IMG/VR virus record: IMGVR_UViG_3300023174_005299
Coordinates: 8,512-72,511 of that record
Source: a virus
Reading direction: 5' to 3' (one strand)
DNA: 64,000 nucleotides
The position numbers and the translations under genes are program-made. Shown here one piece after another: positions 11,768 through 41,587 of this stretch. The stretch's first letter is position 1; each line of letters starts with the position of its first letter. Under the pieces are notes generated by a model. That model saw only the letters and a list, made by a program, of their open reading frames with translations. It ran no database searches and had not been told where the DNA came from.

Positions 11768-11865
11768 AATGCTCACTTCAGACTACAAAGGTAGCGAGTC
11801 TTTTTCGTCTAGGCAGCAGCCGCCCACACACTCGGTAACGAGTACCGGTCCTAAGGTGTGTTCTT
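11768..11865 (-). ncRNA. candidate structured RNA upstream of ahcY
   Basis: GC-rich stretch with stems CACAC/GTGTG, ACTCG/CGAGT, GGC/GCC, AGAC..AAAG/CTTT..GTCT; family not recognised. Confidence 0.45.
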
Positions 11866-12105
11866 TTTAAGTGTGTAATACACTTTAATTTGATTTATCA
11901 TTTCTTTGAGCACGGTGTCAGATTCTGACGCACGTCTAATTTCACCCCAAAGTTTATCTTCTCGAATCTGGTCAACAAGACTTTTGGCCCGAGTATTCTG
12001 TCCAATCATTATGCGTTCAGACTTACCAAGTTCTCTAGCGTATACTGTGTCACCACCGTCGGGACTTTCGTAGATGTAAGTAGCACCTGGTTTAAGTTTA
12101 CCCAT
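11851..12105 (-). CDS. hypothetical protein
   Basis: YIYESPDGGDTVYARE motif; coupled ORF. Confidence 0.7.
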   Translation of the reverse strand: MGKLKPGATYIYESPDGGDTVYARELGKSERIMIGQNTRAKSLVDQIREDKLWGEIRRASESDTVLKEMINQIKVYYTLKKNTP

Positions 12106-13202
12106 CAATTTGTTAGGTAGTCCACAGCATAGTCTTGATCCACAAGACTTTTATGACACTTTTGTTCACACTCTACCCAAGCACAGCTTTGATCATCGAA
12201 GCTGTTGAATAAGTGCGACCAAGCATCATCATTTAACACATCCTCTAGACTGCGATGGTGTAGATTTATACTGTCCTTGAATTTGTTTTGAAAATTATCT
12301 TTGAAATGAATGGTTTTGCGATCATTGCCCATCTCTCGATAAGTGTAGCTGGTCCAACTGCAGGGATGCAATAACCCATCAGCACTGACATAGATGGCAC
12401 GATTTCCAATTTCACACAATGGTGTGATAAATGTGTTGTGTTTGTTTTTGACCTGCTCAAATCTCTGCTGTGTTTCAGCCATGAATTGTTGATTCAACTG
12501 TTGCCGTCCTGACAAGTTGATCAACCGACGTTCGTATCTATGACTTTTGCTGATCCATTCTGCTCTAGGTTCAAGCTCATCGTGGTCGCCATTGTATCGC
12601 TCGCCATACTTGCTGCCAAACTTGGTGCTCAATGTCAACTGCAACCCATCACATCCAATGGATCTAGCCTGTTGTTCAATGTTGGCAAGATGATCTTGAT
12701 TGAATTGAAAAACAATTGTGGCCCAGTAAACAAAGGCCTTGCTGTGTTGGCACATGATATTCATGCCGGACATGATGCTGTCCCAGTCGCTGTTGACTCT
12801 GTATAAATTGTTGCTGGCTTGATCATAGCCATCTACACTGAAATTCACAGTGTCATACTCGTTGCTGATTTTTGCAAAGTCGTGCCACCAAGAGTCCTTT
12901 TTGTAACTGCCATTGGTGATGGTGTACAAGTGTATGCGATCATTGTGTGTTTTGATGTAATCAACAATGTCTAGATATTGACTGGCATAGATGGGGTCAC
13001 CAATGTCACCGCACATAGTAATGCGTTGCACTTCGTTTTTCAACAGATCTGGACTCAGCACCTTTTTAAAGAAATTCAAATCAAGTTCTTTGTTTAATTT
13101 AAAAACAGGCTCTTCGTCATTTCTAGGACATCGTGGGCACTTCAGGGTGCATTTACCACTTACTTCAAAGTGCCAATGATATAACTGCCAGGGATATTTC
13201 AT
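12105..13202 (-). CDS. radical SAM protein with SPASM/twitch-like C-terminus
   Basis: CTLKCPRC (CxxxCxxC), CGDIGDP, FSVDG, DGLLHPC. Confidence 0.9.
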   Translation of the reverse strand: MKYPWQLYHWHFEVSGKCTLKCPRCPRNDEEPVFKLNKELDLNFFKKVLSPDLLKNEVQRITMCGDIGDPIYASQYLDIVDYIKTHNDRIHLYTITNGSYKKDSWWHDFAKISNEYDTVNFSVDGYDQASNNLYRVNSDWDSIMSGMNIMCQHSKAFVYWATIVFQFNQDHLANIEQQARSIGCDGLQLTLSTKFGSKYGERYNGDHDELEPRAEWISKSHRYERRLINLSGRQQLNQQFMAETQQRFEQVKNKHNTFITPLCEIGNRAIYVSADGLLHPCSWTSYTYREMGNDRKTIHFKDNFQNKFKDSINLHHRSLEDVLNDDAWSHLFNSFDDQSCAWVECEQKCHKSLVDQDYAVDYLTN

Positions 13203-13909: not shown

Positions 13910-16213
13910 TTATTGCCAGACGCCGCCTTTGTTTTTGTACCAGATTTTAGCCCATCGATTGGCATCTTCAACAAGATGTTGATCAAACCTACTTGATGCT
14001 GCCACCTGTGCCTGTTCCCACAATAATAAATTTGAAGGTTTCAATTGGTTCTCAGTGATGCTTTCATTGGGCACACAGTTGCGTACTTGTCCGCCATTCT
14101 TACCTTTTTTAGTGCCCTCGGCGTGCTTGCCTGGCCAACAACGTGTGTAACCATTGGCGTCTTTTTGACCTTTTTTGATCTCATTGATATTGCCATGTGT
14201 TTGACACATGCCACAGTCTTCACACACCATTTCCATCTCTGTGCTTTCATTGTGTTTCTTCTTACCTGCACAGTGAGCACGTTGGCTAAACCCTTTAGGG
14301 TGAGAGCAGTTGATTGAATTTTTATACTTTTGGCTCCAGGCTTCGTTTAGTTCTAATTCACTGTGCGGGAAGGCAATATATGTGTCACCGTTGACATCGC
14401 CTGGACGAATTAAAAATACCCCTGCATCATCATCACCAGATTCATCTTGACCAATTTCCCAACCCATTGAAGCCAATGTTCGTTGTGCTTTGGCCATTTG
14501 TTGCTCTGTGCCCAACCACCATTGTGAGGCCAACTGCTTTAGAATATGTTCTTCATCGGGCTCACGGTCATCACCACCAGGTGGTGCAAATTCACTTAAT
14601 TCTTTTTTTTTAGCAATGGCAGCTTCTTCTACAGCCTTTTTAAACCCCTTGCCTGGTACCCAACCTGCAATGGGCTTGCACTTGCAACTATCTCCGGGAC
14701 ATTTGCAGTTTTTCATACCACATTGCATACAGCGTTTTTCTGTGCTTTCGGCTACGCCCTGTTGTGGATCGTTGGGGTTGGTGGTCAATACAAACTCTTT
14801 GCCTTTGTTGAACAGTTTAGCCTGCATTGTTAATGCGGCTTTGTTTGCGGCAGCCTTGCCACGGTACGAGTAGGGATTGCCTTGTTTGTCTCTAATGAGT
14901 TTGCCATTGAGACGAATATACCAAGTCTGGGTGTCACGATCTAAGTCATGTCGCTCATCATCTCTTGCGCCACGTGCAAACCCTGTGGTATTGGCATGAT
15001 ATTTTTGGCCTGCTTCGCCTAGACCTTGCTCCATTTGTCCCAATGTTTGTTCAACTTGGCGTACCCACCCGCTGACATCACTGCTTCCAATTTCTTCTAC
15101 GTCGCCCACAAAGTCGGCAACTTCATCAATGGCATTTAAAACTTTTTCAGGACCGTACTTGCTCAATAAGTCAACTCGTTGGCTCATGATGCGACGTGTG
15201 ATAGCACCGGCCACTGGACTGTGTTCTTCACCTTCTGCCACACCTTGTTCTTTATCAGTGTCAATCAACGTAAAGTTTTGCATACGCATTTTTGCTTGTT
15301 GTTTTAATTGTTGCCATTCTTGTTGCTTTGCGGCTTTTTGTTCTGGAGACATAGCGGCATACTCTCTACCACTAATGCGAACCTCGACCTTTTCTGGGTT
15401 GGAGCCTTCTGCCACGCTTTCTTTTTTAGCAGCCAGCTCAGCTCTTTTCTTCATTAATAATGCCAAGCCTGAATTAGGAGCAGGTTCTTTATTACCATCC
15501 TCTGCCACACCTTGCTGGCTATACTTGTCAATCGCTTGGCCAAGCCATAACCTATAAAAACCAGGGCGTTCATTATATGCGCTAGTGCCGAGTACAGTTA
15601 TTAATGCGGCTATAGCATCATTTTCTGTTGGGCCTTTCATTTTGGCTGCTATTTTATCAACAAGTGGATCAAATCGTGGTGTATCTTCTGCCATACCTTG
15701 TGTCTGACTCAATGCTTGTTTCTGACGCAATGCATCACGAGCCATTACTGTGTTTTCACGCGAGTTGTCGGGACCAAACCCATGTAATCTATTGCCGGCA
15801 GCAACGCCTGCACCTGTGGCCTTGCTGACATCTTTTGGTGTTGAGGAATAGCCACTTGTTGGGTTTGCACTCCACGCATCCATCTTATCGTATGCTCTGT
15901 TTTGAACTGCACCCAGTGCCGCTCTACCTGCCGGAGTGTTTCCAATTTCACTTAATTGTTCTTCCGCTATACCTTGTTGATCTTTTTGTAACCATCCGTA
16001 AACACTTACTAGGTCACTGGGAAAGTCTGCGTCGTAGTTGAACACAGACATGGCTCTTTTATTACCCAGTGCTGTTACTGCCAAGGGCCAGGCCGCATCT
16101 AGTATTTGATTTTCATCATGGATGTTGGGATTGGCATCAAACACTTGTTTTGCCAGGTCTTCGGCATAGTTGCCGCCACTGTTTGTGTTTTCAAATAGTT
16201 GATTGAGATTCAT
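13910..16213 (-). CDS. modular polyprotein with repeated QGVAE-type linkers
   Basis: 767 aa of short unrelated modules separated by QGIAE, QGMAE, QGVAE (x3), ESVAE, QGLGE; Cys-rich mini-modules. Confidence 0.8.
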   Translation of the reverse strand: MNLNQLFENTNSGGNYAEDLAKQVFDANPNIHDENQILDAAWPLAVTALGNKRAMSVFNYDADFPSDLVSVYGWLQKDQQGIAEEQLSEIGNTPAGRAALGAVQNRAYDKMDAWSANPTSGYSSTPKDVSKATGAGVAAGNRLHGFGPDNSRENTVMARDALRQKQALSQTQGMAEDTPRFDPLVDKIAAKMKGPTENDAIAALITVLGTSAYNERPGFYRLWLGQAIDKYSQQGVAEDGNKEPAPNSGLALLMKKRAELAAKKESVAEGSNPEKVEVRISGREYAAMSPEQKAAKQQEWQQLKQQAKMRMQNFTLIDTDKEQGVAEGEEHSPVAGAITRRIMSQRVDLLSKYGPEKVLNAIDEVADFVGDVEEIGSSDVSGWVRQVEQTLGQMEQGLGEAGQKYHANTTGFARGARDDERHDLDRDTQTWYIRLNGKLIRDKQGNPYSYRGKAAANKAALTMQAKLFNKGKEFVLTTNPNDPQQGVAESTEKRCMQCGMKNCKCPGDSCKCKPIAGWVPGKGFKKAVEEAAIAKKKELSEFAPPGGDDREPDEEHILKQLASQWWLGTEQQMAKAQRTLASMGWEIGQDESGDDDAGVFLIRPGDVNGDTYIAFPHSELELNEAWSQKYKNSINCSHPKGFSQRAHCAGKKKHNESTEMEMVCEDCGMCQTHGNINEIKKGQKDANGYTRCWPGKHAEGTKKGKNGGQVRNCVPNESITENQLKPSNLLLWEQAQVAASSRFDQHLVEDANRWAKIWYKNKGGVWQ

Positions 16214-16764
16214 TATTTTTCTTCCAAGTAGTCCGCATTGCCTTCGGCCATTTTGCGTCGATTACAGTACATTTCACAAGCCATGACTGCATGTTCTAAA
16301 TTTTTAAATTTTGCTGAGTGTGGTCGGTTTTTAATAGATACACGGAACCCATCATCTTCGTTGCCGTGAATCTTGATTTCGTGGCCATCATCTGTGGTGA
16401 TTGTTTTCACAGCAGAACCAAGCATGTCATCCTGCATTTGTTTATTTGATTGTAGTCCAGTGTCATGATTGATTGCACTGGCAACATCCTGCAAATAGTC
16501 GCCCAAGCGTTTTTTGACATTGCTCACAACATCTTCACTGGCCATGGATTCTTCCACACTTTCACCGCCTACAAAATATTTCTTGGCAGGATGTGCAGGG
16601 TCTGTTTTATCTTTTAAAACAGAAATAGAATTTGGTTTAAACAATGCTGGCATCTGCGGCACAGATTTTTGTTGTTTGTTTAGTCCATGCTTGACATTGG
16701 TGGGGGTGACATCACCTTCATTAATGGCATCAATGCGAGAAAGAATTTTTCTAATGTCACTCAT
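16213..16764 (-). CDS. hypothetical protein
   Basis: 183 aa coupled ORF ending DYLEEK. Confidence 0.75.
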   Translation of the reverse strand: MSDIRKILSRIDAINEGDVTPTNVKHGLNKQQKSVPQMPALFKPNSISVLKDKTDPAHPAKKYFVGGESVEESMASEDVVSNVKKRLGDYLQDVASAINHDTGLQSNKQMQDDMLGSAVKTITTDDGHEIKIHGNEDDGFRVSIKNRPHSAKFKNLEHAVMACEMYCNRRKMAEGNADYLEEK

Positions 16765-17649: not shown

Positions 17650-17856
17650 TTAGCGGAGTTTAATTTCTTTGGGTTGCCCTACTAGTACATTGCGATCGTT
17701 GTATTGTGCCCGGATAATTCGACGAGCCATTTCAGCATTACGGGCCTGCACAGTGGTGTCTATGATGTTGGTGTATCCCGGCTGTTTTAGTTTTATTTTT
17801 ACAGCAAAGGTTTTTAGGCCTGTTTTTTTAGGATTTAAAAAATCTTGTGCTTTCAT
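17650..17856 (-). CDS. small protein with MKAQDF N-terminal tag
   Basis: ATG at 17856 overlaps the upstream TGA. Confidence 0.7.
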   Translation of the reverse strand: MKAQDFLNPKKTGLKTFAVKIKLKQPGYTNIIDTTVQARNAEMARRIIRAQYNDRNVLVGQPKEIKLR

Positions 17857-18686
17857 TTTTTCTTGCCCGATTTCATATTGGCGCACCAGTGATACATCCG
17901 AGCCCGTTCGCCTGATGCGTTTTTAGCACGAGCACGTAGATCAGTTACTGACCCATCACAACTGGCACCTGCACGTTTCACACGTCCAGGACGACTCTTG
18001 CCCTTGACCTTGCCATCTGCAAAGTTTTCTTTCATGATCCATGTATCTGGTACTTGTTTATACCGGTCTACCCACATGTCATGCAACTTCTGACCACTGA
18101 TGCTGTGAGTTTTTGCAATACGTGTCATTATCTTGTCAATTGTGTCATACACTTGATCATTGCTGGCAGACTGTAATCGTTGTTTGCGAGCCGTCAATGC
18201 CGCTCGTAGTTCTTCCACAGCTTGATTATCTTTGCTGTGGTCCATGTTTTCCGCCACAGTGGATTCCGCGGCAGTACCGATCAAATGCTTTGCATCGCCT
18301 GCCTTGTTCCAGGCCGCCCACATTGCTTGGCCTTGACTTGTTTGATTGTAACTGGGTCGAATATCATTGCCTAACATTTTGGCATACGCATACATTGTGG
18401 ATGCCACACCTTTGTTTCTATATGCTGGGTCAACCTCAGTGCCGCCGCTTTCTAAGTAATCCGCGGATGGATCTCTCTTCCCTCCTGGAGATCTTACAAT
18501 TATTTCAAACAGGATATGACCTATTTCCCTATCGCTATCATAGGCCTTAACTGACAATAATGGCTCACCCATAAACATTTCAACTGATGCTTTGTAAGTA
18601 TAATCACCAATCTTTTGTGTGTGTCTGAATCTTCGATTAAGAATATCTGTGTTTATTGTTTCAGTAACAAACTCTTGTGCTCTCAT
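17853..18686 (-). CDS. tagged GNAT acetyltransferase-domain protein with extra C-terminal modules
   Basis: MRAQEFVTE start; VDPAYRNKGVASTMY acetyl-CoA motif A; modules after TVAE and IMKE. Confidence 0.75.
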   Translation of the reverse strand: MRAQEFVTETINTDILNRRFRHTQKIGDYTYKASVEMFMGEPLLSVKAYDSDREIGHILFEIIVRSPGGKRDPSADYLESGGTEVDPAYRNKGVASTMYAYAKMLGNDIRPSYNQTSQGQAMWAAWNKAGDAKHLIGTAAESTVAENMDHSKDNQAVEELRAALTARKQRLQSASNDQVYDTIDKIMTRIAKTHSISGQKLHDMWVDRYKQVPDTWIMKENFADGKVKGKSRPGRVKRAGASCDGSVTDLRARAKNASGERARMYHWCANMKSGKKK

Positions 18687-19564
18687 GCTAGTCCAATCTT
18701 GCCAGGTGCCATTGGTCCGTCTTTGATTCTTTCACCGCCATCAAAGTAACGTATTTCAATGGGCATGTCCTGCCAGTTTAATCTGTAGGCAGCCATGATA
18801 CGATGATTGCCTTCGTTGACCCATGCTTCACCATTGTAGGCCACCATGATATAGGGCAGGTATTCCTGATCGGGATTACTGCCCATGGGCGGCAACTTGC
18901 CTGTGCGTTCCATGTAATCCATCAACCACTTTAAGTCATCTCGACGCACATTGGTTTGTTCGTTGCGCATGCCGGGAAGAGAAGCCAATCTCATTACACG
19001 CACTCTAGGTGGAGTTCCAACAACACCGGCAGTAGTGCTACCCATATAAGGAACACCGTAGCTGTTGCGGCCTTTGCTTTGAGCATAGTCTATTTTATCT
19101 TGTAACCATTCTTCGTTGGGTACATCTACACTTAACTTGCCTTCTGTTACTGTTTGCTCTTTGATTCGTGGATTTAGGGTTTTTATGTGTGTAGCATCGC
19201 CTTGTTTTTCCCACTTATTCCACATGGCCTGGCCATCATCTGTTTGATTGGTAGAAGGTGATATGTTGGCACCCAGCATACGCATCACAGCATACATGTT
19301 TGCGGCAATACCTTGTCCCTGCCACTCTGGCTCTACATGAGTGCTTAGACTTTCCAATCCCGGACGAGTTTTGTGCTTCCAAAATCCTGCTTGAGCAATC
19401 ACTTCGTTGTTTTTGTCAGTCACAGTGACCACCGGGCCAAATCCTTGATCATTTGTTACTTCGTACATGACGCCATTGATTTCCTGACGGAACTCAAACC
19501 CCGGTTGCATCACATCCTGGTTGAATTTTTCTTTGTATTCGCGTAAAAACTCTTGTGCTCTCAT
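18683..19564 (-). CDS. tagged GNAT + ParB/Srx-like domain protein
   Basis: MRAQEFLRE start; VEPEWQGQGIAANMY; after TVTE linker, EGNHRIMAA ParB-like motif. Confidence 0.75.
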   Translation of the reverse strand: MRAQEFLREYKEKFNQDVMQPGFEFRQEINGVMYEVTNDQGFGPVVTVTDKNNEVIAQAGFWKHKTRPGLESLSTHVEPEWQGQGIAANMYAVMRMLGANISPSTNQTDDGQAMWNKWEKQGDATHIKTLNPRIKEQTVTEGKLSVDVPNEEWLQDKIDYAQSKGRNSYGVPYMGSTTAGVVGTPPRVRVMRLASLPGMRNEQTNVRRDDLKWLMDYMERTGKLPPMGSNPDQEYLPYIMVAYNGEAWVNEGNHRIMAAYRLNWQDMPIEIRYFDGGERIKDGPMAPGKIGLA

Positions 19565-19565
19565 A

Positions 19566-21101
19566 TTAGTGGAACATTAAGTAACTGTCGATCACATCCT
19601 TGCGATTGGCTGCACGATCTCCGGCACCGGGCTGTACAATAACATTCCACTTGGGTGCAGGACCCACCGGTGTTGCCAGCATTTGATCGTAGGTGATAAT
19701 TGACTTGGGATCAACCTGATATTGCTGTGCAAGACGTTGTTTAAATGTGTCAAGTGCTTCAGGACTGGCAAACTGTGTGCGGCCCTTGGCGTCTTTGATC
19801 AAACTGTTGCCGTTACGTGCAATCAAATCAAAAAACATGTTCTTGGGAACTGTAACACCTTGCTTGACTGTGGCTCCAGGATTTTGTTGTTTATAGAATT
19901 CCACTTTCTTTTCTTCGCCACGTTTACTACCTGATGAGAAGTTCATTGTAAAGTTTGCAGGTGACGCACCTGTGGCAACATCGCCCATCTTGGTGTAGGC
20001 ATAGAATTGTACATCAGGATTGGATTTAGCAACATCATAAGCAAGATCCAAGTATTCCTTACTGAAGAAGTCACCAGCATCGTGCCAACGCACAACTAGT
20101 TGAATACCAGCTTTGTCTGCTTTGGCTTTAATTGTTTTAATCTCTTGATTGACTCTGGCACTGTAACCTTCGGGATCATTCACCAAGAAATTTAGTGCTT
20201 GCGCCGCTGACATAGAGCTAGCAGGGAACATGACATAGCCACCCTTACGTGCATAGCAGAATAATTGGCAAGCACCAGCACCAGGACATGTAGTAATTTC
20301 CACAAAGTCACCGGTGTCTTCATCTACAACAATGCCACTCAGCGCCGGCAATGTCAAGTCATAAATGATTTCACCTTCAGTCTTGCTCTTTTCCATTTTG
20401 GCATTGGTACCAAGTATAGCTCGTGGGCGTGTAGTAATTTGACTAGCTAAGTCGTCTAAGTCCCACTCGGTGTTGTTATCGTCTTTGGTGATGGCTTTGA
20501 TGTTGCTGCCGTGAATAATTGGGGCAAACTTATCACGCTTGGTCTTTGTACCGGTCTTGATACGATTAGCATAGCCCTGCAATTCATCACGTGGTATTGT
20601 GCGTTGTGGTGCGTTGAGTTTGATTGCTTCCGCCACACCTTGCTCTTTTTTAACAACAAACGATATTTGTTTGTTTCCAGTGTTGGGATCTGTGTATACG
20701 CTCTTGAACACTCTACCGCCATGTTGTTTGGCATGAGCAAATGCTTCTTGTTTGTTGTCAAATCTGTTAGTAGGTGGCTTGATCATTGGGCTGGCTTCTT
20801 CGCCTATGCCACGAACAGCACGATCTAATCGCCATCTTTGTTGCGGTCCCAGCAAATGATTGTCTTCGGGTTTGGGACTATGGCCACCGTAACGACTTGG
20901 GTCAGCATGATGTCTTATACCTGTGGCAGTTTTTTCCACCGACCCTAGGTTAACTGGGGAATTATCTGGCGGAGAATTTGGTCCACGACGACCACTGTTG
21001 GCGTTGCCAGCTTCTTCAACACCTTGATCTTGAATGTTCAATACCTTGACTGGAAATCCACCCAGGGTTGTTTCTTTTAATATAAAATCGTGAGCTCTCA
21101 T
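19566..21101 (-). CDS. tagged modular protein with C-terminal GP88-like (Cys-rich) domain
   Basis: MRAHDFILKE start; QGVEE and QGVAE linkers; TCPGAGACQLFCYARKG and VRWHDAGDF motifs. Confidence 0.7.
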   Translation of the reverse strand: MRAHDFILKETTLGGFPVKVLNIQDQGVEEAGNANSGRRGPNSPPDNSPVNLGSVEKTATGIRHHADPSRYGGHSPKPEDNHLLGPQQRWRLDRAVRGIGEEASPMIKPPTNRFDNKQEAFAHAKQHGGRVFKSVYTDPNTGNKQISFVVKKEQGVAEAIKLNAPQRTIPRDELQGYANRIKTGTKTKRDKFAPIIHGSNIKAITKDDNNTEWDLDDLASQITTRPRAILGTNAKMEKSKTEGEIIYDLTLPALSGIVVDEDTGDFVEITTCPGAGACQLFCYARKGGYVMFPASSMSAAQALNFLVNDPEGYSARVNQEIKTIKAKADKAGIQLVVRWHDAGDFFSKEYLDLAYDVAKSNPDVQFYAYTKMGDVATGASPANFTMNFSSGSKRGEEKKVEFYKQQNPGATVKQGVTVPKNMFFDLIARNGNSLIKDAKGRTQFASPEALDTFKQRLAQQYQVDPKSIITYDQMLATPVGPAPKWNVIVQPGAGDRAANRKDVIDSYLMFH

Positions 21102-24100
21102 TTTGCTTTGATCTCTTTCAGTTGGTTTTGTAGTTTGGTCATCAATAACGGTGGGCTGCCATTATCATCAATTGCCCAACCCAATTTCTTGGCTTGTCGC
21201 TGTGTTTCGCCAGGCTTGATATCAACTGTTAGGCCTGACACATAACGTGGATCGTGCGCCAGTTTGCTGTCAACAGGAATAAAACCGGTGGCTTCTTTTA
21301 ACTGAACTGTTTTGGCACGGGCCGCCAGTTTTTCTGGCAAGGTAAATTCTGAATCAGGAGCAACACACACTGTGTCGACGCATTGATTGAGAACTTCGGT
21401 GGGCAAATCAATATAACTCAATGCACCACCATAGGCTTCTTGGAATGGCAAAGCAATGCCCACCAGGGAGTTGGTGAACGTTGGATTCTGTCCCACTTCA
21501 CCAGGGCGATTCCCCCTCCAAAGACGAGTCTGACCTGATGCAACTGCCGGTAATTGACTTTGAATTTTGTTTGCTTGAGCAACTAGACTGCGAATTCGCG
21601 GTGTGTTTGCATAGTCATGCCCGTCATGAGTTATTTTGCCTTCTTGCTGTTCGTTTGATCTGACATACACTTTTTGCGGCAGTTGTTTGTTGTCGTTATT
21701 ATATTTTGCCGGCTCACTGGATTTTTCTTTGTCAAAATACTTTCGCATCTCTGCTGAACTTGTCTTGGATTTTCTTTCACCGGGGGCCTTGGGCTTTGTT
21801 AAAAATCCAATTACACCTTCATCTGCAATATCTTCCGCTATTGGTTTTATTCTACTCAATTCGTACATGACTTTGTTGCCGGTTTCTGCACGGAACGCAC
21901 GGAAGCCCAAAGCCCTTGCATAACGCTGAACCAAACTGTCATACAGTCTTGCCCTGGTCATTGCTTTCCTTTGATCCTCATCTGGTTTAACTTCTTTTGA
22001 GGCTGAGAAATATATTTTATTGGGCTTGTATTTTCCTTTTGCACCAGGCACCCTGTCAGAAATAAATGTTTGAACAGCACTTAGCACAGTGGCAAATACA
22101 CGCTGTTGATCACCCTCACCTGTCTTTTCTTGACTGTTGTTTCTAAAGAACTCAACACTCCAGGCTTCCTCTTTTGTCTCTTGTTTAAATCCCTTGTTAA
22201 ACATAATGCTTAGAAAAGTTCCGTCATCTAATCGTGCTATTGCGTCTACATCACCGTGGTCACCCTTTTCCCACCGAAGTATTTTATAGGGTTGGTCCAA
22301 TGATTCATTTATAGATTCATCAAATCGCCAATTACCAGTAAAAAATGGATCATTAATGACTATCTCGCCATCACTGCCAAGCATAAAATTACCGCCATGC
22401 AAATCAAGTCTGTATCCCTTTCGGTCAGCAAGCTTATCCAGTTGCTCAATGGTGTTGGCCAACAACAGAAATTGTTGCCGCCCACCAACCAATGACATTA
22501 GTTTTCCTGTTTCTTGATCTCCGTGGCGTCTTAGGAATTTATTAACTCCACGGTCTGCACCATTGGACTGTATCAAACTTGCCAGTTGCCCTAGCCTGGA
22601 ACCAACCAGTATCAACCCAGACTTGCTAAGATCAAACATTCTTTCACAGTTGATCTGCAGATATCGTTTACCTTCAAAGTCAAAAGGTTCCCAGCCGCCA
22701 AACTGTGGCAAAAATGGATTGTTAGGCTTTGCCATGCAGTAATCGGCAAAGTCTTTGAAACTTTGTTGTCCTTGGGATAACTTACCGCCTGGACCGTAAC
22801 CGAATATTTTGAGAACAGTTCCGTCGGGTGCTAGATAGGCATCTTGGTCCTGACCTTTGCCCAAAAATGCGTAGCCTTTTTTTACAAGAATTGGTTGAAT
22901 GTTTTTGCTGATCTGAGCTTCGTCTATGCTTTGTTTATCTTCGTCAGTGGTTGATTCGGGCACCGCTTGCCCTTGGCGACGACGCAGATCATCTTTCATG
23001 CGCTGTAATAATTCTTCGCGAGCACCGGCAGCACCCATGTGCTTGATGGTCTGCGATGCACGCCCTATGGTTTGTATGTCCTTGACTGTTTGTCCAACAC
23101 CACTGGTGGTGGCGCAACCAGGTGTGCCAGCTATGCATGCTGCCGCGGCCACGGCTGCTAGTTGGTCTTTGACAGATTCTTCCAATGGAATATCTTTAAA
23201 AAATTCTGGGTACTGATCCACCCAATGACGCATGATACGGCCTGCCATGGCATTGGCCTCATCTTCGTGGGGTGATCCTGTTTCGCCTGCATCTACAGGC
23301 ATGGTGGCCAGTTCATCCTGACGAGCATGCGTGAGTTCGTGTGCTAGAGTACGCAGTATGTCCAAAGGATGTCGGTTACTTACTGCCAGGGTCACTGAAT
23401 ATGTGTCAGTGTCAAACTGACCAAACGTGCCGTGTCTACGTGTCCACTCAGGATCTTTTTTTATTATAATTTTTGGGGCTTGTTCAATACCAAGATATTC
23501 CATACAACTGTTTATGAATGGTTGCAGTATTTCTTTAATGTCACGGGGTTGTTGAGCTTCGGCTATGCTTTCGCTGACACCACCGTCATCGCCACTACCA
23601 CCGTCAAGCATGTTCAATGGACCAAAGCTGCCATACACAAATTTGGGTTTTTTGCGTTCTTTGAGACTTAGACTTTGGCTTTTGGCTGCTTGGCGTGCGG
23701 CTGTTAATCGATCCAATGTGCCGTTGTTTCTCAGCACTTTGAATGCTAGATTCTCGGGACTGAATTCACCAGTGTCTGCCAAACCAGCTTTGCGCATGTC
23801 TTTGATTTTGTCAGCAACTTGATCCATGCTGTCAAGGTCGCCACTTGCAATAGCCGAGTCAACTCGGTGTCCTAGATCTTCATACTTGCTCTTGACACTG
23901 ATGTCATTGATGCTGGGTTGACTACGTTTGGGTACGCTCAACCATTTGTTGTCGCGAATTGAATATATGCCTTGACTGACATGCGGCTGTTTGCTGTCTT
24001 GCACATACAACTCAATGTCATAAGGGCCAATTTTAAAATTGTACTCATCATTGTATTGATACTTCTTGGCATTGAACAGTTCTTGATATACAGGATCATC

Positions 24101-24361
24101 GGGAATGTCTACAACTAGGTGTAGGTCAATGTCGCTGTGTGGGGTATATGTGTAGGCAGCATTGCTGCCGCTCAGTGTTATATCTTTGAGTGCCAGGTCA
24201 TCTACACCCAGAAATTCTCGAAAATCATCTGCAATTTTCAGCAGATGATCTCGAACATCCAGGCGTAAATGTTGGTTAGACCCCCATAGTCGAGGGTTTA
24301 ACTCTTGGTTAAATTTAATTGCGTCACTGAGACGAAATGATTCTAGTTCGTTGATGTCCAT
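21098..24361 (-). CDS. polyvalent protein: nucleotidyltransferase + zincin peptidase + kinase + further domains
   Basis: SGSN...SDIDLH (Pol-beta NTase), AHELTH (HExxH), GKGQD..VLKI..DLHGGN..IND (kinase), RLWRG (possible ART). Confidence 0.8.
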   Translation of the reverse strand: MDINELESFRLSDAIKFNQELNPRLWGSNQHLRLDVRDHLLKIADDFREFLGVDDLALKDITLSGSNAAYTYTPHSDIDLHLVVDIPDDPVYQELFNAKKYQYNDEYNFKIGPYDIELYVQDSKQPHVSQGIYSIRDNKWLSVPKRSQPSINDISVKSKYEDLGHRVDSAIASGDLDSMDQVADKIKDMRKAGLADTGEFSPENLAFKVLRNNGTLDRLTAARQAAKSQSLSLKERKKPKFVYGSFGPLNMLDGGSGDDGGVSESIAEAQQPRDIKEILQPFINSCMEYLGIEQAPKIIIKKDPEWTRRHGTFGQFDTDTYSVTLAVSNRHPLDILRTLAHELTHARQDELATMPVDAGETGSPHEDEANAMAGRIMRHWVDQYPEFFKDIPLEESVKDQLAAVAAAACIAGTPGCATTSGVGQTVKDIQTIGRASQTIKHMGAAGAREELLQRMKDDLRRRQGQAVPESTTDEDKQSIDEAQISKNIQPILVKKGYAFLGKGQDQDAYLAPDGTVLKIFGYGPGGKLSQGQQSFKDFADYCMAKPNNPFLPQFGGWEPFDFEGKRYLQINCERMFDLSKSGLILVGSRLGQLASLIQSNGADRGVNKFLRRHGDQETGKLMSLVGGRQQFLLLANTIEQLDKLADRKGYRLDLHGGNFMLGSDGEIVINDPFFTGNWRFDESINESLDQPYKILRWEKGDHGDVDAIARLDDGTFLSIMFNKGFKQETKEEAWSVEFFRNNSQEKTGEGDQQRVFATVLSAVQTFISDRVPGAKGKYKPNKIYFSASKEVKPDEDQRKAMTRARLYDSLVQRYARALGFRAFRAETGNKVMYELSRIKPIAEDIADEGVIGFLTKPKAPGERKSKTSSAEMRKYFDKEKSSEPAKYNNDNKQLPQKVYVRSNEQQEGKITHDGHDYANTPRIRSLVAQANKIQSQLPAVASGQTRLWRGNRPGEVGQNPTFTNSLVGIALPFQEAYGGALSYIDLPTEVLNQCVDTVCVAPDSEFTLPEKLAARAKTVQLKEATGFIPVDSKLAHDPRYVSGLTVDIKPGETQRQAKKLGWAIDDNGSPPLLMTKLQNQLKEIKAK

Positions 24362-27458: not shown

Positions 27459-28178
27459 TTATTTAGTTAAGACTTGAATTGTTTTTCTAATTAATCCTGG
27501 GGTAATTAATTCCAACATTTGAGATATTGCATCATTGTTGTGATCAAAATAGTAGTGACGTGCCACTAGATTATAGTGCCTTACACCAGCACTACTGAGC
27601 CAGGATTTGAAACTGGGACCTAGATTGATCCCTTGTTGACTTGTCAGGTACGCTGCCAAGGACTTTTTGGCTTCTTGAGAAATCAAACGTTCTTTAAAGT
27701 ATGTTCGCCGAGTGTATTCACCAGTACCACGCACTGAATCAAAAGGTCTGTCAATTAACGCTTCGTGTACCACCTTGACATTGAAATCTTGAGCTGTTAG
27801 TTTGTCGACTTGTGTGATATCATTGGTGTAAACATAACACCAGTTTCTTGTGGTGGAAAATTTAAAATCTCCAGCTTGATTTTTGATCAAAGAATACAAC
27901 CTGCACAATCTTTGTTCTCGATTAGCAAGAGTGAGTTCGTCATTTTGATAAGGTCTTGGAATCGCCCAAGACCCACCATAGTTGATATCCGGCTGCCAGC
28001 CCAGGCGTTTGGAAATAGTGTCAGGCGCAGTATCAACGTCATTGGAGAACAACCCACGCAACACACTGCATCTAGGTTCATTGATTGAAATACTGTATTT
28101 GTATTTGTTAAAAAACAATCGATCTGTTGATTTTTTCTTATGCATCGGGATCAAGTTTTTCAAAAATAATGTAGCCAT
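27459..28178 (-). CDS. hypothetical protein
   Basis: 239 aa ORF overlapping the clpA end; start uncertain. Confidence 0.65.
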   Translation of the reverse strand: MATLFLKNLIPMHKKKSTDRLFFNKYKYSISINEPRCSVLRGLFSNDVDTAPDTISKRLGWQPDINYGGSWAIPRPYQNDELTLANREQRLCRLYSLIKNQAGDFKFSTTRNWCYVYTNDITQVDKLTAQDFNVKVVHEALIDRPFDSVRGTGEYTRRTYFKERLISQEAKKSLAAYLTSQQGINLGPSFKSWLSSAGVRHYNLVARHYYFDHNNDAISQMLELITPGLIRKTIQVLTK

Positions 28179-30423
28179 CTTTATTAACCTTGGGCAATTG
28201 AGGATCTAACACCGGCACAATATCAAACACCAATTGGTCATTGTCTAATCCAAGATTGATTGTGCAATCTTGCAGTCTATCAAACAAGATTTTCTTTGAC
28301 AGCGGAACTCGAATCAGTTCATCAATTTTTCTATTCAAGGGTCTTGCACCCATCTTGCTGTCATATCCTTTGTCGGCCAAATGTTCAATCACAGACTCTG
28401 TGAGGTTTAGTTTTATGTTCTTGTCCACTAAACTTTGCTTGAGCACATCCACAAATTTTATTACAATCTTTTTAATTGCCAACTGATCAAGCTTTTTAAA
28501 TTTGCAAATCAAATCAATTCGATTGCGCATTTCTGGTTTAAAAAAGTCCTTGACTGCGGCATCTTCACTGCCGGTTTTTTCCAGGGACTGTGAAAAACCA
28601 ATGTTGTTGTTTTCGTTGTCTCTGGCACCAAGATTTGATGTCAGGATGATGATGGTGTTTTTACAATCCACAGTTTTGCCACTGCTGGATGTGATCCTAC
28701 CTTCATCCAGCATCTGCAACAAGATGTTTGAAACATCGGGGTGAGCTTTTTCAATTTCATCAAATAATAAAATAGCATAGGGGTTTTTGCTGAGATCTGA
28801 AATCAGTTTACCACCACTTAAATTGCCATCTTCAAATCCCACGTAGCCAGGAGGAGCACCAATCAAAGTACTCACTGTGTGTTTTTCCTGATACTCGCTC
28901 ATGTCATAGCGCAACAATGGCATGCTTAGATTCTCTGCCAACAGTTTGGCCAACTCAGTTTTACCAGTTCCGGTGGGTCCCAGGAACAAGAAACTGCTCA
29001 TTGGCTTTTGTGTGTTGCCCAAGCCTGCATAGTTGACATACACACGTTCCAGCACATTGTTTACCACTTCGTCTTGTCCATAGAGTCGTTGCTTGATATT
29101 GCTTTCAAGTTCTATGATTTTTGTGCTATCTTTGTTTTCTAGTTTGTCCATGGGCACACCGGCAACTCGACTCAACTGCTGTAAAATCATGCCGCGATTC
29201 ACAGTGACATTGCCCAGGTCTTTGACACGTTCCCGGCTACAGGCAGCATCCAGCAAGTCAATGCTCTTGTCAGGATTCTTTTTGTCATGAATATATCGTG
29301 CACTGAGTTCCACAGCCGCTGTGATTGCATCAGTGTCAATGAGCACATTGTGGAATTGCTCAAGTCTTGGACTCAATCCAATAAGAATCTGTTCTGTGGT
29401 ATTTGCATCGGGCTCGTCTACTGCCAGTCTATGAAAGCGGCGCATCAAGGCACGATCCTTCTCAAAGCTTTCGTAGTATTCTTCCCAAGTGGTTGATGCC
29501 ACAACTTTGAGGTTGCCTTTGGTGATGGCAGGTTTGATCATGTTGGCAAAGTCCAAGGAACTTGACCCCGAGCTACCAGCACCTTTCATGGTGTGTGCTT
29601 CGTCGATGAATAACACACACTTCTTGTTGCTTTCGAGAGCCTGAATAACCATTTTTAATTTTTCTTCAAACTCACCGCGGTACTTGCTGCCTGCCAACAA
29701 TGAACCAATCTCCAGGCTCCATACTTCATGATCCTTGAGAAAGTTTGGTACTTTGCCATCAGTGATTGACTTGGCAAGGCCTTCAATCAAGGCTGTTTTG
29801 CCCACGCCAGGGTCGCCTACCAACAACACGTTGGCCTTGAAGCGACGAGCTAATGCAGTGATCATTTCTTGAATATCAGTTTCTCTACCAATCACTGGCT
29901 CAAGACGATCTTCTCGTGCCAACTGTGTAAGGTTGACACAGTACTCTTCAAGAATCTCTGTGGCTTGTTGATGGTTGATTTTTGCATCATTGTGATTGTA
30001 GTTTTGTTCCCAAAACTTTGCAAATTCTTGTTTGTTGACACCGTATTTGAGCAAGAAATAATGTGCATGACTATTGCTTTCGCTCATGATGCTGAGATAC
30101 AAGTCAAGTGTTGTGATGGTTCTGCGTCCGGTAAACAACACCTGAGTCAATGCTCGATTAAAAACTCTTTCCAGCGCATTTGTTTTCTTTGTGTTCCTGC
30201 CCGCTGCCTTGTTTTCGATGCTGGTCAGACTGTCAAGATACGCACCAAGTTCCTTGCCCATCAGTTCAATGTCAATGCCAAATTTGATCAACACTCGTTG
30301 AAACGGAGTGTGTAGTAGTAAACTGGCCAACAAATGTTCAGTGGTCACATATTCATGTGATCGCTCTCTGGCAATCTTTATAGCGTTCTCAATGATTTGT
30401 TCAATTTCTGGATTGTTTTGCAT
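28138..30423 (-). CDS. clpA: ClpA-like Hsp100 AAA+ ATPase
   Basis: Clp N domain (HEYVTTEHLL), GDPGVGKT and GPTGTGKT Walker A motifs, no ClpB middle domain, IGF loop. Confidence 0.9.
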   Translation of the reverse strand: MQNNPEIEQIIENAIKIARERSHEYVTTEHLLASLLLHTPFQRVLIKFGIDIELMGKELGAYLDSLTSIENKAAGRNTKKTNALERVFNRALTQVLFTGRRTITTLDLYLSIMSESNSHAHYFLLKYGVNKQEFAKFWEQNYNHNDAKINHQQATEILEEYCVNLTQLAREDRLEPVIGRETDIQEMITALARRFKANVLLVGDPGVGKTALIEGLAKSITDGKVPNFLKDHEVWSLEIGSLLAGSKYRGEFEEKLKMVIQALESNKKCVLFIDEAHTMKGAGSSGSSSLDFANMIKPAITKGNLKVVASTTWEEYYESFEKDRALMRRFHRLAVDEPDANTTEQILIGLSPRLEQFHNVLIDTDAITAAVELSARYIHDKKNPDKSIDLLDAACSRERVKDLGNVTVNRGMILQQLSRVAGVPMDKLENKDSTKIIELESNIKQRLYGQDEVVNNVLERVYVNYAGLGNTQKPMSSFLFLGPTGTGKTELAKLLAENLSMPLLRYDMSEYQEKHTVSTLIGAPPGYVGFEDGNLSGGKLISDLSKNPYAILLFDEIEKAHPDVSNILLQMLDEGRITSSSGKTVDCKNTIIILTSNLGARDNENNNIGFSQSLEKTGSEDAAVKDFFKPEMRNRIDLICKFKKLDQLAIKKIVIKFVDVLKQSLVDKNIKLNLTESVIEHLADKGYDSKMGARPLNRKIDELIRVPLSKKILFDRLQDCTINLGLDNDQLVFDIVPVLDPQLPKVNKDGYIIFEKLDPDA

Positions 30424-30478
30424 TTTGCTCCTTGTGCTTGTCATGTATAGTAACATGATTAATTGAATGCCACAATAT

Positions 30479-32969: not shown

Positions 32970-34256
32970 ATGAAAAAAATAATTGCATCTACGATTGTGT
33001 ACGTTACACTGTTGTCTGGGGCTGTACAAGCACAAACTACAACAACATCAAGCTCGTCCGGTGGCACAACCACAGGTACAAGTACATTAATTAATCAAGG
33101 TACCTATGACTCCAAGAGCCTAGTGGACACCAACAGCACCAGCAACAGCACCAGCACAGTTACTTCAAACAGCAATACTAATAGCACAAGTAACAGCAAT
33201 AGTACTAGTGCTATCAACAGTACCAGCAACAATACCAACAACAACAATAGTACCAGCACCAGTGTGAATACTAACAATAACATTCAAAGTGGAACTGTCA
33301 CTAACAATAACAACAATGTCAACAGTGGAACAATGACGTATAATAACAATAACGTCAACAGTGGCACAATGACCTATAATAACAATAATGCAAGCACAAG
33401 TACCGCTACAAATAACAATAACAATGTTAATACCGGCACAATGACATACAATAACAACAATGTCAGTTCTAGTACTAGCAATAATGTTAACACAAATAAC
33501 AACATTAATACTGGTACAATGACATACAATAACAACAATGTCAATACTAGTACAAGCACTGCTACTAACAATAATAACAATGTTAATACTGGTACAATGA
33601 CATATAATAACAATAATGTCAATGCAAGTACCGCTACCAACAATAACAACAATGTTAATACAAGTACTGCTACTAATAATAATGTTAATACCGGAGATAT
33701 GACTAATCGTAATATTAATACTTCTACAAGCGCAAGTACTTCAGTTAATAACAATGTTAATCAAAATAACTCAGTTAATACAAATATTCAGCAAGGTGAA
33801 TTGACCAACAAAAATATTAATACAACTGAAATAACACAACGAATTATTCAACCTCCTCCAACTGCTGTTGCACCCGCTATGTTGAGTGGTGGCAATGCCG
33901 ATTTATGTAGCACCGGAAGTAGTGGCAGTGTTCAAACACAAGTATTTGGTGTAAGTTCAGGTGGCACTATCCGTGATATGAATTGTGAACGACTAAAGTT
34001 ATCTAAGACGCTATATGATATGGGTATGAAAGTAGCCGCAGTAGCTACAATGTGTCAAGACCGTCGTGTGTTTGATGCTATGATAGCCGCAGGCACACCT
34101 TGCCCATACGAAGGCAAGATTGGTGAGCAAGCTAAAGCAAGTTGGGAAGCTAATCCAGATCGTATTCCAAAGATGGATGAGGAAAAGATAGATGACACTT
34201 ATAAGAAAGTTGGCATTGGGGCTGTTCTTGGTCTTATTGTCAACAAAATATTCTAA
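32970..34256 (+). CDS. secreted Asn/Thr-rich repeat protein with Cys-containing C-terminal domain
   Basis: Signal peptide, repeats NNNNVNTGTMTY, C-terminal domain with four Cys, hydrophobic tail. Confidence 0.8.
   Translation: MKKIIASTIVYVTLLSGAVQAQTTTTSSSSGGTTTGTSTLINQGTYDSKSLVDTNSTSNSTSTVTSNSNTNSTSNSNSTSAINSTSNNTNNNNSTSTSVNTNNNIQSGTVTNNNNNVNSGTMTYNNNNVNSGTMTYNNNNASTSTATNNNNNVNTGTMTYNNNNVSSSTSNNVNTNNNINTGTMTYNNNNVNTSTSTATNNNNNVNTGTMTYNNNNVNASTATNNNNNVNTSTATNNNVNTGDMTNRNINTSTSASTSVNNNVNQNNSVNTNIQQGELTNKNINTTEITQRIIQPPPTAVAPAMLSGGNADLCSTGSSGSVQTQVFGVSSGGTIRDMNCERLKLSKTLYDMGMKVAAVATMCQDRRVFDAMIAAGTPCPYEGKIGEQAKASWEANPDRIPKMDEEKIDDTYKKVGIGAVLGLIVNKIF
33130..33790 (+). repeat. coding repeat region (Asn runs, VN[ST]GTMTY units)
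   Basis: GTMTYNNNN occurs five times; DNA unit ggcacaatgacatacaataacaacaatg and variants. Confidence 0.85.
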
Positions 34257-40093: not shown

Positions 40094-40912
40094 TTATTTC
40101 TTTTCAGCTTTGTATCTGTCCATTAACTTTCGAGTGTCAATGTTGTTGTATTCATTTTTAATAACGTAATTAACAATGCTGAGTAATTGCGTTGCTTTTG
40201 GATTTACAGCAATAGCAATGTTATCTACGCTGTCACTGATTGTAATACTCTTAGTAGTAATTGCCGCATCTGGCTTTTCAAAAGCAATTTTCTTAATTTC
40301 AAATTCATCACGGTAAGCGGCAGCAATGTCGCCACGTGTGACTTTGTCAATGATCACATCCCATTTTTCTTCAGGTTGGAATATGGCGTTAGGGAAGTTG
40401 ACACGAGCAAATGTATCATAACTTGAGTTCTTGATAAAACTAATCTTGCCATTGAAATTTCTAATGACTTGATAGACTTCACGACCCTGGCTGTTTTGAC
40501 TTAGCCATAGTCTATTGATAACTAAACTCTGTCTTAGTTTAATATAAGGTTCGCTGAACCTAACAACTTGTAAACGTGGACCAGTTACGGATAGTTTACT
40601 AACTGCTATGTCTGCTCGTCCGTCTCTAACTTGTTCTACAACTTCGGCAAAACTTTCGGCATCGCGCCTGAATTGCACCGGAACTCCGAGCATGACTCCA
40701 ATACGTCGAGCAATCTCAACGTCAAGACCATGTATTGTATCCTCATCTCCACTGAAGAAGGGAGGATTATCTTTTTTGGTCATTGCTACAACAAGCACGT
40801 TGGCTTTCTTGATTGCGGCAATGTCGGTGGGTAGTGGTACTGTTGATGTTGGCATTTGTGCCGAAGCAACAGACGCCAGCAATAGCAATACAGAGGTGAA
40901 TAGTTTTTTCAT
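40094..40912 (-). CDS. amino-acid substrate-binding protein (family 3)
   Basis: Signal peptide, NPPF, GLDVEIA, GRADIA, FSEPY. Confidence 0.88.
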   Translation of the reverse strand: MKKLFTSVLLLLASVASAQMPTSTVPLPTDIAAIKKANVLVVAMTKKDNPPFFSGDEDTIHGLDVEIARRIGVMLGVPVQFRRDAESFAEVVEQVRDGRADIAVSKLSVTGPRLQVVRFSEPYIKLRQSLVINRLWLSQNSQGREVYQVIRNFNGKISFIKNSSYDTFARVNFPNAIFQPEEKWDVIIDKVTRGDIAAAYRDEFEIKKIAFEKPDAAITTKSITISDSVDNIAIAVNPKATQLLSIVNYVIKNEYNNIDTRKLMDRYKAEKK

Positions 40913-41038
40913 TGAATGTAATCCATAATATGGGTAGTAAATACCCATTCTATTTATAAAAAATTTCTATGTATCTGTTTGATTTAATAGAGTTATTTCC
41001 CAAACAACCAGTTAATAAATAAATCAAAGGAGCACATT

Positions 41039-41587
41039 ATGGCAGAACAAAAAACAGAACAAAAACCCTTGTCACGCAGTGAGCGTGAGGCACAGATCAA
41101 AGACAAAGCAGGCTGGGTAATCACAGTGATTGCTTGTTTGTTAGCAGCCACAACCTATATCAGCAACAATTTCAGTAGCAAGGCAATGACCAACTTGATC
41201 AAGGCCAATGACACTTACAGCTTCTATCAAGCCAAAAGTATCAAACAAAGCATTGCCGAAGGACAGTTGGAAGATGCCAAGGATCCCAAGCGCCGAGCAG
41301 AATTAGAAGCAAAAATTGCCAGATACGAAAGCGATCCAGTTAAAGGTGAAGGCAAGCGTGAATTACTGGCCCGAGCCCGGGAACTAGAAGCCGAACGTGA
41401 TGAAGCCAAGCTTCACTCTCCGTGGCTTACCTTTGCTGGTATGGCCCTGCAGTTTGCCATTGTACTATTAAGTGCTAGTATATTGGCAGTGAGCACAAAG
41501 ATGTTCAAATGGAGCATTGCTGTGAGTGCGTTTGGTGCTGTGCTATTAAGCCAGGGTATCTGGCTGTGGTTACCGCTGTCTCTGTAA
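41039..41587 (+). CDS. DUF4337-like membrane protein
   Basis: ANDTYSFYQAKSIKQ, LQFAIVLLSAS. Confidence 0.7.
   Translation: MAEQKTEQKPLSRSEREAQIKDKAGWVITVIACLLAATTYISNNFSSKAMTNLIKANDTYSFYQAKSIKQSIAEGQLEDAKDPKRRAELEAKIARYESDPVKGEGKRELLARARELEAERDEAKLHSPWLTFAGMALQFAIVLLSASILAVSTKMFKWSIAVSAFGAVLLSQGIWLWLPLSL

Follow-up and report, generated by a model that had tools for sequence, protein, structure and literature searches.

The stretch of DNA analysed here (the window, 64,000 nucleotides) spans positions 8,512 to 72,511 of the IMG/VR virus record IMGVR_UViG_3300023174_005299 and carries on its minus strand, at 21098-24361, a single open reading frame (ORF) that encodes a polyprotein of 1087 amino acids plus stop, which we call P0001. 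The viral contig from which the window derives has 72.5 kb, and CheckV assigns it a completeness of 21%, implying a phage genome of about 350 kb. Many homologues of P0001 come from contigs of 330-365 kb. The source contig is a fragment of the genome of an uncultured T4-type jumbo phage. An original prediction, made from the letters of this DNA and its translated reading frames, described the gene as one polyvalent protein in which several host-modifying domains are bounded by Glu linkers. Both the single ORF and the segments listed at the time are present, with coordinates that lie within a few residues of the borders we derived from BLAST matches. From its N to its C terminus, the protein divides as follows.

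24347-24361, minus strand: residues 1-5 (MDINE), possible short N-terminal propeptide
23657-24346, minus strand: M1, residues 6-235, predicted Pol-beta-type nucleotidyltransferase with a helical C-terminal half, ends LKE235
23558-23656, minus strand: linker, residues 236-268, basic and then Gly/Asp-rich, ends IAE268
23177-23557, minus strand: M2, residues 269-395, predicted minimal zincin (127 residues), ends LEE395
22919-23176, minus strand: M3, residues 396-481, contains AAACIAGTPGCA, with VPE469 and IDE481 at its end
22304-22918, minus strand: M4, residues 482-686, probably kinase-like, ends INE686
21833-22303, minus strand: M5, residues 687-843, no assigned function, ends IAE843
21647-21832, minus strand: M6a, residues 844-905, basic and probably unstructured stretch
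21293-21646, minus strand: M6b, residues 906-1023, small module (118 residues), possibly ADP-ribosyltransferase (ART)-like, ends LKE1023
21113-21292, minus strand: M7, residues 1024-1083, small near-universal module, ends LKE1083
21101-21112, minus strand: residues 1084-1087 (IKAK), possible C-terminal tail that may be removed at LKE1083

Homologues were collected from 5.8 billion proteins, which gave 1493 relatives at E <= 0.001 among 8000 scored candidates; the homologue counts below rest on the best 120 of these 1493, or on the 119 of them other than P0001 itself. The homologues align from residue 1, so the annotated start codon is right, and the best 120 are annotated as 'hypothetical' or carry generic labels only. 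A nucleotide search of GenBank phages with the P0001 gene returned no match, and a protein search of named phages found no complete polyprotein, only stand-alone relatives of M1 (covering at most 22% of the query) and relatives of M5. The module borders were derived from the start and end points of the BLAST matches to the 119 homologues, independently of any reading of motifs. Residues 1-395 of P0001 are covered by 116-118 of these homologues, residues 401-461 by 72-79, residues 481-681 by 6-13, residues 701-841 by 55-56, residues 861-1001 by 3-10 and residues 1021-1061 by 102-114, with match breakpoints recurring at residues 395, ~475, 682-686, 843 and 1020-1023. Pieces of P0001 are found at differing positions in different homologues, in which the modules are shuffled and combined with amidoligase, LysM, chitinase-like, zeta/AAA_33, deaminase, GNAT and GP88 domains. 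The M4 protein encoded at 22304-22918 is 99.5% identical to that encoded at 11780-12394 of the closest complete relative (locus L003), whereas M1 of the same gene is 65% identical, which suggests that one cassette, delimited by the junction motifs described below, was exchanged recently between phages. Together, the breakpoints indicate that the borders of P0001 reflect recombination between seven or eight autonomous modules. The label of polyvalent protein is therefore apt, with unrelated enzyme modules, a zincin among them, joined in one phage polypeptide and shuffled among homologues.

The anticipated Glu linkers turned out to have a defined form, since a tripeptide of the pattern [ILV]-x-E stands at every module border (IAE268, LEE395, IDE481, INE686, IAE843, LKE1023 and LKE1083). 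In the aligned homologues the pattern [ILVMF]xE is kept at residues 393-395 in 112 of 114, at 684-686 in 55 of 55, at 841-843 in 33 of 37 and at 1021-1023 in 99 of 102, and at 266-268 in 68 of 108, where the alignment is loose in that linker. It is conserved as well at residues 3-5 and at residues 233-235 (115 of 116 in each case), and narrower patterns hold at both places, with [IL]xE at residues 3-5 in 113 of 116 and L-x-E at residues 233-235 in 114 of 116. At LKE1083, no more than 37 of 76 homologues have [IL]xE. Conservation is far lower than at the junctions for three motif copies that lie inside modules or linkers and mark no border (11 of 97, 18 of 94 and 0 of 18). Across homologues of 45-70% identity, positions 1 and 3 of the junction motif are retained while its middle residue and its flanks vary.

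As a test independent of P0001, we recorded the internal match ends in an all-against-all BLAST of 110 of the 120 proteins, after dropping 10 that were near-identical. The glutamates of [ILV]xE motifs gave 2.10 internal match ends each against a background of 0.158 per residue, an enrichment of about 13-fold; match starts reached their maximum two positions ahead of the Glu, at 1.77 compared with 0.122. None of six tripeptides used as controls, of which two likewise end in Glu, showed such an excess of match ends. Within 0 to +2 of such a Glu fall 8610 of the 23431 internal ends, or 37% as against 4.3% expected. The residue that follows the Glu at the 564 breakpoint-supported sites is Ala in 26%, Ser in 21%, Asp in 16% and Gly in 9% (72% together), whereas the commonest residues at the 1567 other sites are Leu (13%), Val (10%) and Arg (9%). 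As a control, we turned to polyvalent proteins of different kinds and inspected the border at the C-terminal end of M6b, where the alignment reaches the end of the domain in 105 of 130 proteins and the domain lies at the C terminus in 8 of these 105; the motif is found nearby in 23 of 97, which is about chance. This control is pooled, as a sorting of the proteins into a 'T4-jumbo type' by a loose leader pattern proved unreliable and was set aside.

The original prediction named no enzyme that would cut the protein. The junction motif of P0001 matches that of the T4 prohead protease. In T4, gp21 cuts after Glu in L/I-X-E, the first cut found being at a Glu-Ala bond; Alt is trimmed of an N-terminal propeptide of 7 residues and of a piece at its C terminus, and the internal proteins carry a capsid-targeting leader of 10-19 residues that is removed by the gp21 cut (PMC9026906). 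As the joints match the motif of the head protease, we consider it fairly likely that P0001 is packaged in the phage head as a polyprotein, cleaved by the prohead protease and injected along with the DNA as a set of effectors.

Genes with leaders of the capsid type lie directly downstream of P0001 on the same strand, followed by a further gene that shares modules with the polyproteins.

19566-21101, minus strand: 511-residue gene, leader MRAHDFILKE, two modules including GP88 (PF17338, 113.9 bits); its start overlaps the P0001 stop
18683-19564, minus strand: 293-residue predicted cargo gene, leader MRAQEFLRE, modules common to the homologues P0040, P0100, P0038 and P0025 (GNAT region)
17853-18686, minus strand: 277-residue predicted cargo gene, leader MRAQEFVTE
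13910-16213, minus strand: 767-residue gene, no canonical leader, two internal modules shared with homologous polyproteins

The three genes directly downstream are the only ones among the 67 ORFs of the window that start with an MRA-type leader. In the T4 record, IPII and IPIII start with MKTYQEFIAE followed by Ala. Of 39 related loci, 20 have the same leader as that of the P0001 neighbours on ORFs that lie downstream and on the same strand (33 ORFs in all); some of these loci are near-duplicates. The 277-residue gene comprises an N-terminal GNAT-like module, 77% identical to P0025, and a 60-residue C-terminal module that ends many of the polyproteins, and residues 539-632 of the 767-residue gene are 76% identical to residues 1075-1168 of P0023. 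A 183-residue ORF in the same row (16213-16764, minus strand), for which no family match was found, starts with MSDIRKILSRIDAINE and then Gly, which may be a longer leader ending in the junction motif.

The single genes and the polyproteins contain the same modules in split and fused form, and their alignments begin at the leader. From leader residue 7, the 511-residue gene matches residues 799-1313 of P0034 over its whole length; its residues 7-101 match residues 885-981 of P0007 (84%) and its residues 152-511 match residues 1230-1589 of the same homologue (94%). These alignments begin at the [IL]xE of the leader, with the leader Glu aligned to the junction Glu, and the polyprotein alignments of the 293- and 277-residue genes likewise begin at leader residue 7 or earlier. 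M5 occurs as a stand-alone gene with a capsid-type leader at three related loci (L005, L006 and L034). For M4 we found 211 stand-alone relatives, of which 120 were listed. An initial Met with a leader whose closing [ILV]xE falls at residues 8-13 is present in 105 of these 120, as counted with a broad pattern (a strict pattern requiring Phe finds 16 of 120). The [ILV]xE ends at residue 9 in 98 of the 105, and Ala comes directly after it in 87. The mature start of the stand-alone M4 proteins aligns with the residues that follow IDE481 in P0001. The N terminus common to the P0001 family, M-x-I-x-E-L, resembles the first six residues of these kinase-module leaders, and a cut after residue 5 of P0001 may be inferred.

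The linker that precedes the 511-type module in P0007 is still leader-like, its Met included, and is flanked by two [IL]xE motifs. Such a fossil leader could also mean that P0001 is a multidomain enzyme that is never cut, in which every [ILV]xE is a relic of the leaders of genes that became fused, and N4 virion RNA polymerase and ArdC are described as being delivered uncut (PMC5512222). On that account, however, there is little reason for positions 1 and 3 of the motif to be kept while the middle residue and the flanks vary, and the bias towards small residues behind the Glu suggests that selection acts on a site in use. We regard an uncut P0001 as very improbable.

The prohead protease itself was sought in the relatives. 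Peptidase_S77 scores over its cut-off in four of five near-complete genomes that carry a P0001 homologue. The closest of the five, G001, is a genome of 352,754 bp with terminal repeats; a stretch of ~25 kb in it runs colinear to the window, with nucleotide identities of 68-95%. Its head genes form a T4-like cassette that encodes, in this order, a portal, an acidic 275-residue protein, the S77 protease (gp21-type), a 361-residue scaffold-like protein and the major head protein. The scaffold-like protein contains 22 [ILV]xE motifs, or 6.1 per 100 residues compared with 0.5-3.4 in six neighbours. The 275-residue protein (7722-8549 of locus L046), which is very acidic, carries within its first 65 residues three I/L-E-E motifs with Ala or Gly as the next residue, and recalls the small prohead core proteins of T4.

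We then assigned the modules one by one; sequence and profile searches of the PDB returned nothing significant for the whole of P0001, M1, M4, M5 or M6b, and a Pfam scan gave no match for M3, M4, M6 or M7. The expected Pol-beta-type nucleotidyltransferase is found in M1, where G65, S66, D77, D79 and E117, which correspond to the G-[SG] and D-x-D motifs and the third carboxylate, are invariant in 26 sequences and phrog_36119 matches at 1e-43. Scanned by itself, the segment gives 21.7 bits for the Pfam family PF01909, just over the cut-off of 21; a scan of the entire protein stays below that cut-off at 19.4 bits. The best PDB matches to an M1 profile, both over the catalytic motif and neither significant, were the AMPylation domain of the AMPylase DrrA (E 0.15) and a minimal nucleotidyltransferase (E 0.25). 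Stand-alone relatives of M1 are found in T4-like cyanophages, Maribacter phages, Lak phages and others, and the conserved motif indicates that M1 is a nucleotidyltransferase of the Pol-beta type.

The HExxH peptidase proposed for the second segment is likewise supported by invariant residues. M2 contains HELTH at 341-345 together with Glu366, and H341, E342, H345, E366, R330, H331, D334 and Q348 are invariant in 27 sequences. An AlphaFold2 model of M2 (mean predicted local distance difference test score, pLDDT, 87) follows a zincin's order of elements: one helix, then three strands, then the helix with HExxH and finally the helix with the Glu. A Foldseek search of the PDB with this model placed zincin folds at all of ranks 1-25, led by abylysin (E 2.7e-3, probability 1.0), with none at E <= 1e-3; further zincins matched were jannalysin/selecase, Wss1, SPRTN, IrrE/PprI, CapP and lethal factor, and ArdC appeared at rank 43. 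The model thus identifies M2 as a minimal zincin metallopeptidase.

The segment described as lipoprotein-like in the original prediction, M3, is a conserved hydrophobic segment with two Cys residues, and only the lipoprotein signal as such falls away. After LEE395 it consists of a short start containing Lys or Arg, an Ala-rich hydrophobic stretch with the two Cys (C-x6-C) and a conserved helical part; it is conserved in 74 homologues, the more distant of which keep the hydrophobic stretch and lack the Cys. A lipobox follows N-terminal n- and h-regions and has the pattern [LVI][ASTVI][GAS]C. A lipoprotein signal was rejected for M3, as the segment is internal and its two Cys are preceded by AAA and by TPG. 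Were the chain cut at Glu395, the -3 position would still misfit at both, so M3 has no canonical lipobox.

For M4, the kinase-like call is upheld by the residues K518, D653, N658 and D671, which are invariant in 120 of 120 stand-alone homologues, and by Q569, which is kept in 119 of 120. K518 takes the place of the beta-3 Lys, D653 and N658 that of the catalytic D-x4-N and D671 that of the Asp of DFG. The only annotated family matched was phrog_15752, the T7 gp0.7 kinase family, at 3e-5; the catalytic loop aligns to the SPAK kinase in the PDB at E 0.45 and 1.2 only, and four stand-alone homologues gave no match in a Pfam copy that is without PF27024, a family listed for some of these homologues. 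The module stops ~15 residues past its DFG-like motif, DPF, and so has no C-lobe. M4 is probably a truncated kinase-like domain.

M5 matches two PHROG families without function, phrog_16075 at 1e-10 and phrog_6387 at 2e-8, shows a weak likeness to DUF6934 (E 0.023 only), had no relative in the PDB search and has relatives of ~30% identity in KVP40-like Vibrio phages. In Vibrio phage nt-1 (2527-3447 of locus L047) the relative of M5 lies in a 306-residue hypothetical protein, with two 'prohead protease inhibitor' genes within 2-3 kb.

The last segment had been taken as a single possible ART-like domain marked by RLWRG. The module with this motif exists as M6b, but the segment is not one piece: the basic M6a (844-905) is separate, and M7 had not been listed at all. 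Matches to M6a are distinct from those to M6b, cover query residues 1-64/78 only (for example P0004, P0232 and P0239), and M6a occurs alone elsewhere. The M6b family has 131 matches among 1.84 billion representatives, in stand-alone proteins of 96-290 residues or within proteins of up to 6044 residues, and 51 of its members showed no relevant Pfam family. R946 and R949 show no variation, at least 90% of the members retain E1005, and T963/S965 are conserved. The catalytic triad of ARTs, R-S-E or H-Y-E, is spread over strands 1, 2 and 5. In an AlphaFold2 model of M6b (pLDDT 95) R946 and R949 lie on one strand, T963 and S965 on the next and E1005 on a later strand. Foldseek ranks 1-10 against the PDB all belong to the ART superfamily, with Tpt1/KptA best at E 0.033 (probability 0.84-0.87), SAIP, PARP14 and PARP10; further down the list come Cholix, exotoxin A and RhsP2, and two CNFy entries stand in between. 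The template modelling (TM) scores are 0.3-0.4, and none of the matches reaches E <= 1e-3. A search of a viral structure library gave weak matches only, two small phage proteins named as ARTs among them. The model thus weakly suggests an ART-like module. For M6, a protein atlas gave unnamed viral clusters and a lead to DUF4765 (score 0.90), which was dropped for want of shared features.

In two giant proteins M6b stands beside ART-PolyVal, InPase and LPD38, and it is therefore a domain of classical polyvalent proteins, distinct from ART-PolyVal. It recurs, unnamed, in giant classical polyvalent proteins of 2,400-6,000 residues (P0153 and P0190), and no Pfam model lies over it, though Pfam has many domains defined from such proteins. 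M7 is present in 102-114 of the 119 homologues, usually directly after M2 or M3; searches of families, the protein atlas and the PDB gave no lead for it.

In the packaging reading that we favour, the polyprotein would be built into the prohead core, and the prohead protease would cut it after each junction Glu and probably also after residues 5 and 1083. The pieces would remain in the head, enter the cell with the DNA like T4 Alt and the internal proteins, and act separately in the host cell. There, the nucleotidyltransferase may transfer nucleotides onto a small molecule or a host protein, the zincin may cleave host proteins, the truncated kinase may phosphorylate host proteins, as T7 gp0.7 does, and the small ART-like module may use NAD+.

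Several points weigh against this reading, which is drawn entirely from sequence comparison and well supported by it. The homologues are interrelated, so the motif, breakpoint and post-Glu counts do not represent independent events, and the first motif position in the P0001 clade is Val in 40% as against Leu in 46%, whereas the T4 motif has L/I. P0001 starts with MDINEL, without a canonical leader and with only a 5-residue [IL]xE. No Peptidase_S77 was found in one of the five related genomes, which is 99% complete. The source contig has no Peptidase_S77 match either and its Gp23 match reaches only 13 bits, which is sub-threshold; as the contig represents ~21% of the genome, these missing matches are uninformative. 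The P0001 gene sits among genes of replication and metabolism (DNA polymerase, radical SAM, Lon-like protease) and not among head genes, and the T4 late-promoter octamer occurs twice in the window, with 2.2 expected, in neither case near the P0001 gene. Finally, M2 is present in 118 of the 119 homologues with its catalytic residues invariant.

This constancy of M2 would suit the main rival explanation, in which the zincin itself, without any part for the prohead protease, processes the polyprotein at the junctions while inside the head or once injected. The minimal zincins that M2 resembles in fold include several that process themselves or a partner (abylysin/selecase zymogens, IrrE and CapP), and Iyer et al. 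2017 proposed such a role for the zincins of polyvalent proteins (PMC5512222). We nevertheless consider self-processing unlikely, as the junction motif is the published motif of gp21, the leaders of single-module genes without a zincin terminate in it too, and the scaffold-like protein of the relative is dense in it.

The position of the gene bears on another explanation, that P0001 is a host-takeover protein of the cytoplasm, made early and never packaged, whether or not it is cut by a protease of cell or phage, for example the Lon-like enzyme nearby. The neighbouring DNA polymerase, Lon-like protease and radical SAM genes would fit such a protein, as would a gene with no late-promoter octamer nearby and a product with no canonical leader. 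Against this, capsid-type leaders are present on three adjacent genes of the same strand, whose modules form part of fused P0001-type proteins in relatives; the alt and ip genes of T4 also lie outside the head cluster, with ipI-III among tRNA, e and denV genes in the T4 record. A purely cytoplasmic role is distinctly improbable, and it fits less well than self-processing by the zincin, as does the uncut enzyme.

Returning to the packaged polyprotein, it is tempting to speculate that its invariant N-terminal part, the nucleotidyltransferase and the zincin with M3 or M7 behind them, is more than two further effectors and serves as a loading chassis by which variable cargo enters the head. M3 would then be a targeting peptide unmasked by the cut at Glu395, which would expose its charged start, its Ala-rich hydrophobic stretch and the two Cys and send the fragment to the host membrane or envelope. 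We consider this extension quite unlikely.

Elsewhere in the window, the Lon-like ATP-dependent protease gene (772 residues, 28138-30456, minus strand; phrog_4871, E 2.9e-240) lies 4 kb upstream of the polyprotein and is found at the colinear place in the relative as well. Radical SAM genes lie at 12105-13202 (minus strand, phrog_21308) and 54701-55786 (minus strand, phrog_14086). The coding strand and the AT-skew switch near 32 kb of the window. Several ORFs within 32970-36024 (plus strand) and 40094-41878 (minus strand) start with classical signal peptides, which is unusual for a phage, and the ORF at 41588-41878 has a textbook lipoprotein signal ending in Gly-Cys; a PHROG search gave no function for the two large ORFs of these regions.

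If P0001 is indeed packaged and cut, T4-type jumbo phages would deliver a set of enzymes with their DNA, beyond the small inhibitors. The head-protease motif would act as a universal joint through which cargo modules move between leader-tagged single genes and long polyproteins, and a sequence-only rule would follow for recognizing injected proteins in uncultured phages, namely a leader, or [ILV]xE joints at recombination breakpoints. Polyvalent proteins would in this case be taken apart by the maturation protease of the virion, a second answer beside the embedded zincin, and M3, M5, M6b and M7 would become candidates for host-takeover or anti-defence functions.

Among known systems, the polyvalent proteins described by Iyer et al. 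2017 share with P0001 the combination of several unrelated enzyme domains with a zincin as hub, and their kinases, like M4, lack the C-terminal subdomain and carry a conserved Gln on the final N-lobe strand; their delivery with the DNA was predicted (PMC5512222). Where Iyer et al. have the zincin itself do the cutting, the joints of P0001 match the motif of the prohead protease and are interchangeable with capsid-targeting leaders. The P0001 family further differs from the polyvalent proteins described there in that a nucleotidyltransferase leads every member and possibly in its ART-like module with conserved R, S/T and E. The literature that we surveyed holds no description of polyvalent proteins with prohead-protease joints or interconverting with leader-tagged genes, while the supplementary domain lists of Iyer 2017, which lie outside this survey, may hold some of the modules.

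The kinase of T7, gp0.7, acts on host proteins in the way proposed for M4, with a weak similarity between the two and with M4 ending after its DFG-like motif. T7 gp0.7 is made after infection and is not known to be packaged. In the giant phages phiKZ, 201phi2-1 and SPN3US, many ejection and inner-body proteins found inside the head are cleaved by the prohead protease after Glu, at a short motif, some of them yielding several fragments, and are then ejected into the cell (PMC9026906). The phiKZ-type phages are a separate lineage, and the account of their head proteins does not describe them as shuffled enzyme cassettes. The motif of their prohead protease, a small residue-x-Glu, differs from that of P0001.

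T4 offers parallels in both the cut sites and the genes. The leaders of T4 internal proteins end in [IL]-x-E followed by Ala, with the cut after Glu, and those of the P0001 neighbours read MRAQEF[ILV]xE; Alt is an enzyme trimmed at both of its ends (PMC9026906). A change of the Glu to Asp is reported to prevent the processing of the T4 leader (PMC9026906). T4 cargo genes are reported to be non-essential, variable and scattered outside the head cluster (PMC9026906, PMC12373910), and the internal proteins are injected inhibitors that share only a leader (PMC12373910). In contrast to the T4 cargo, which consists of single proteins, mostly small inhibitors, P0001 and its relatives would bring up to eight modules, most of them enzymes, in one chain with predicted internal cut sites.

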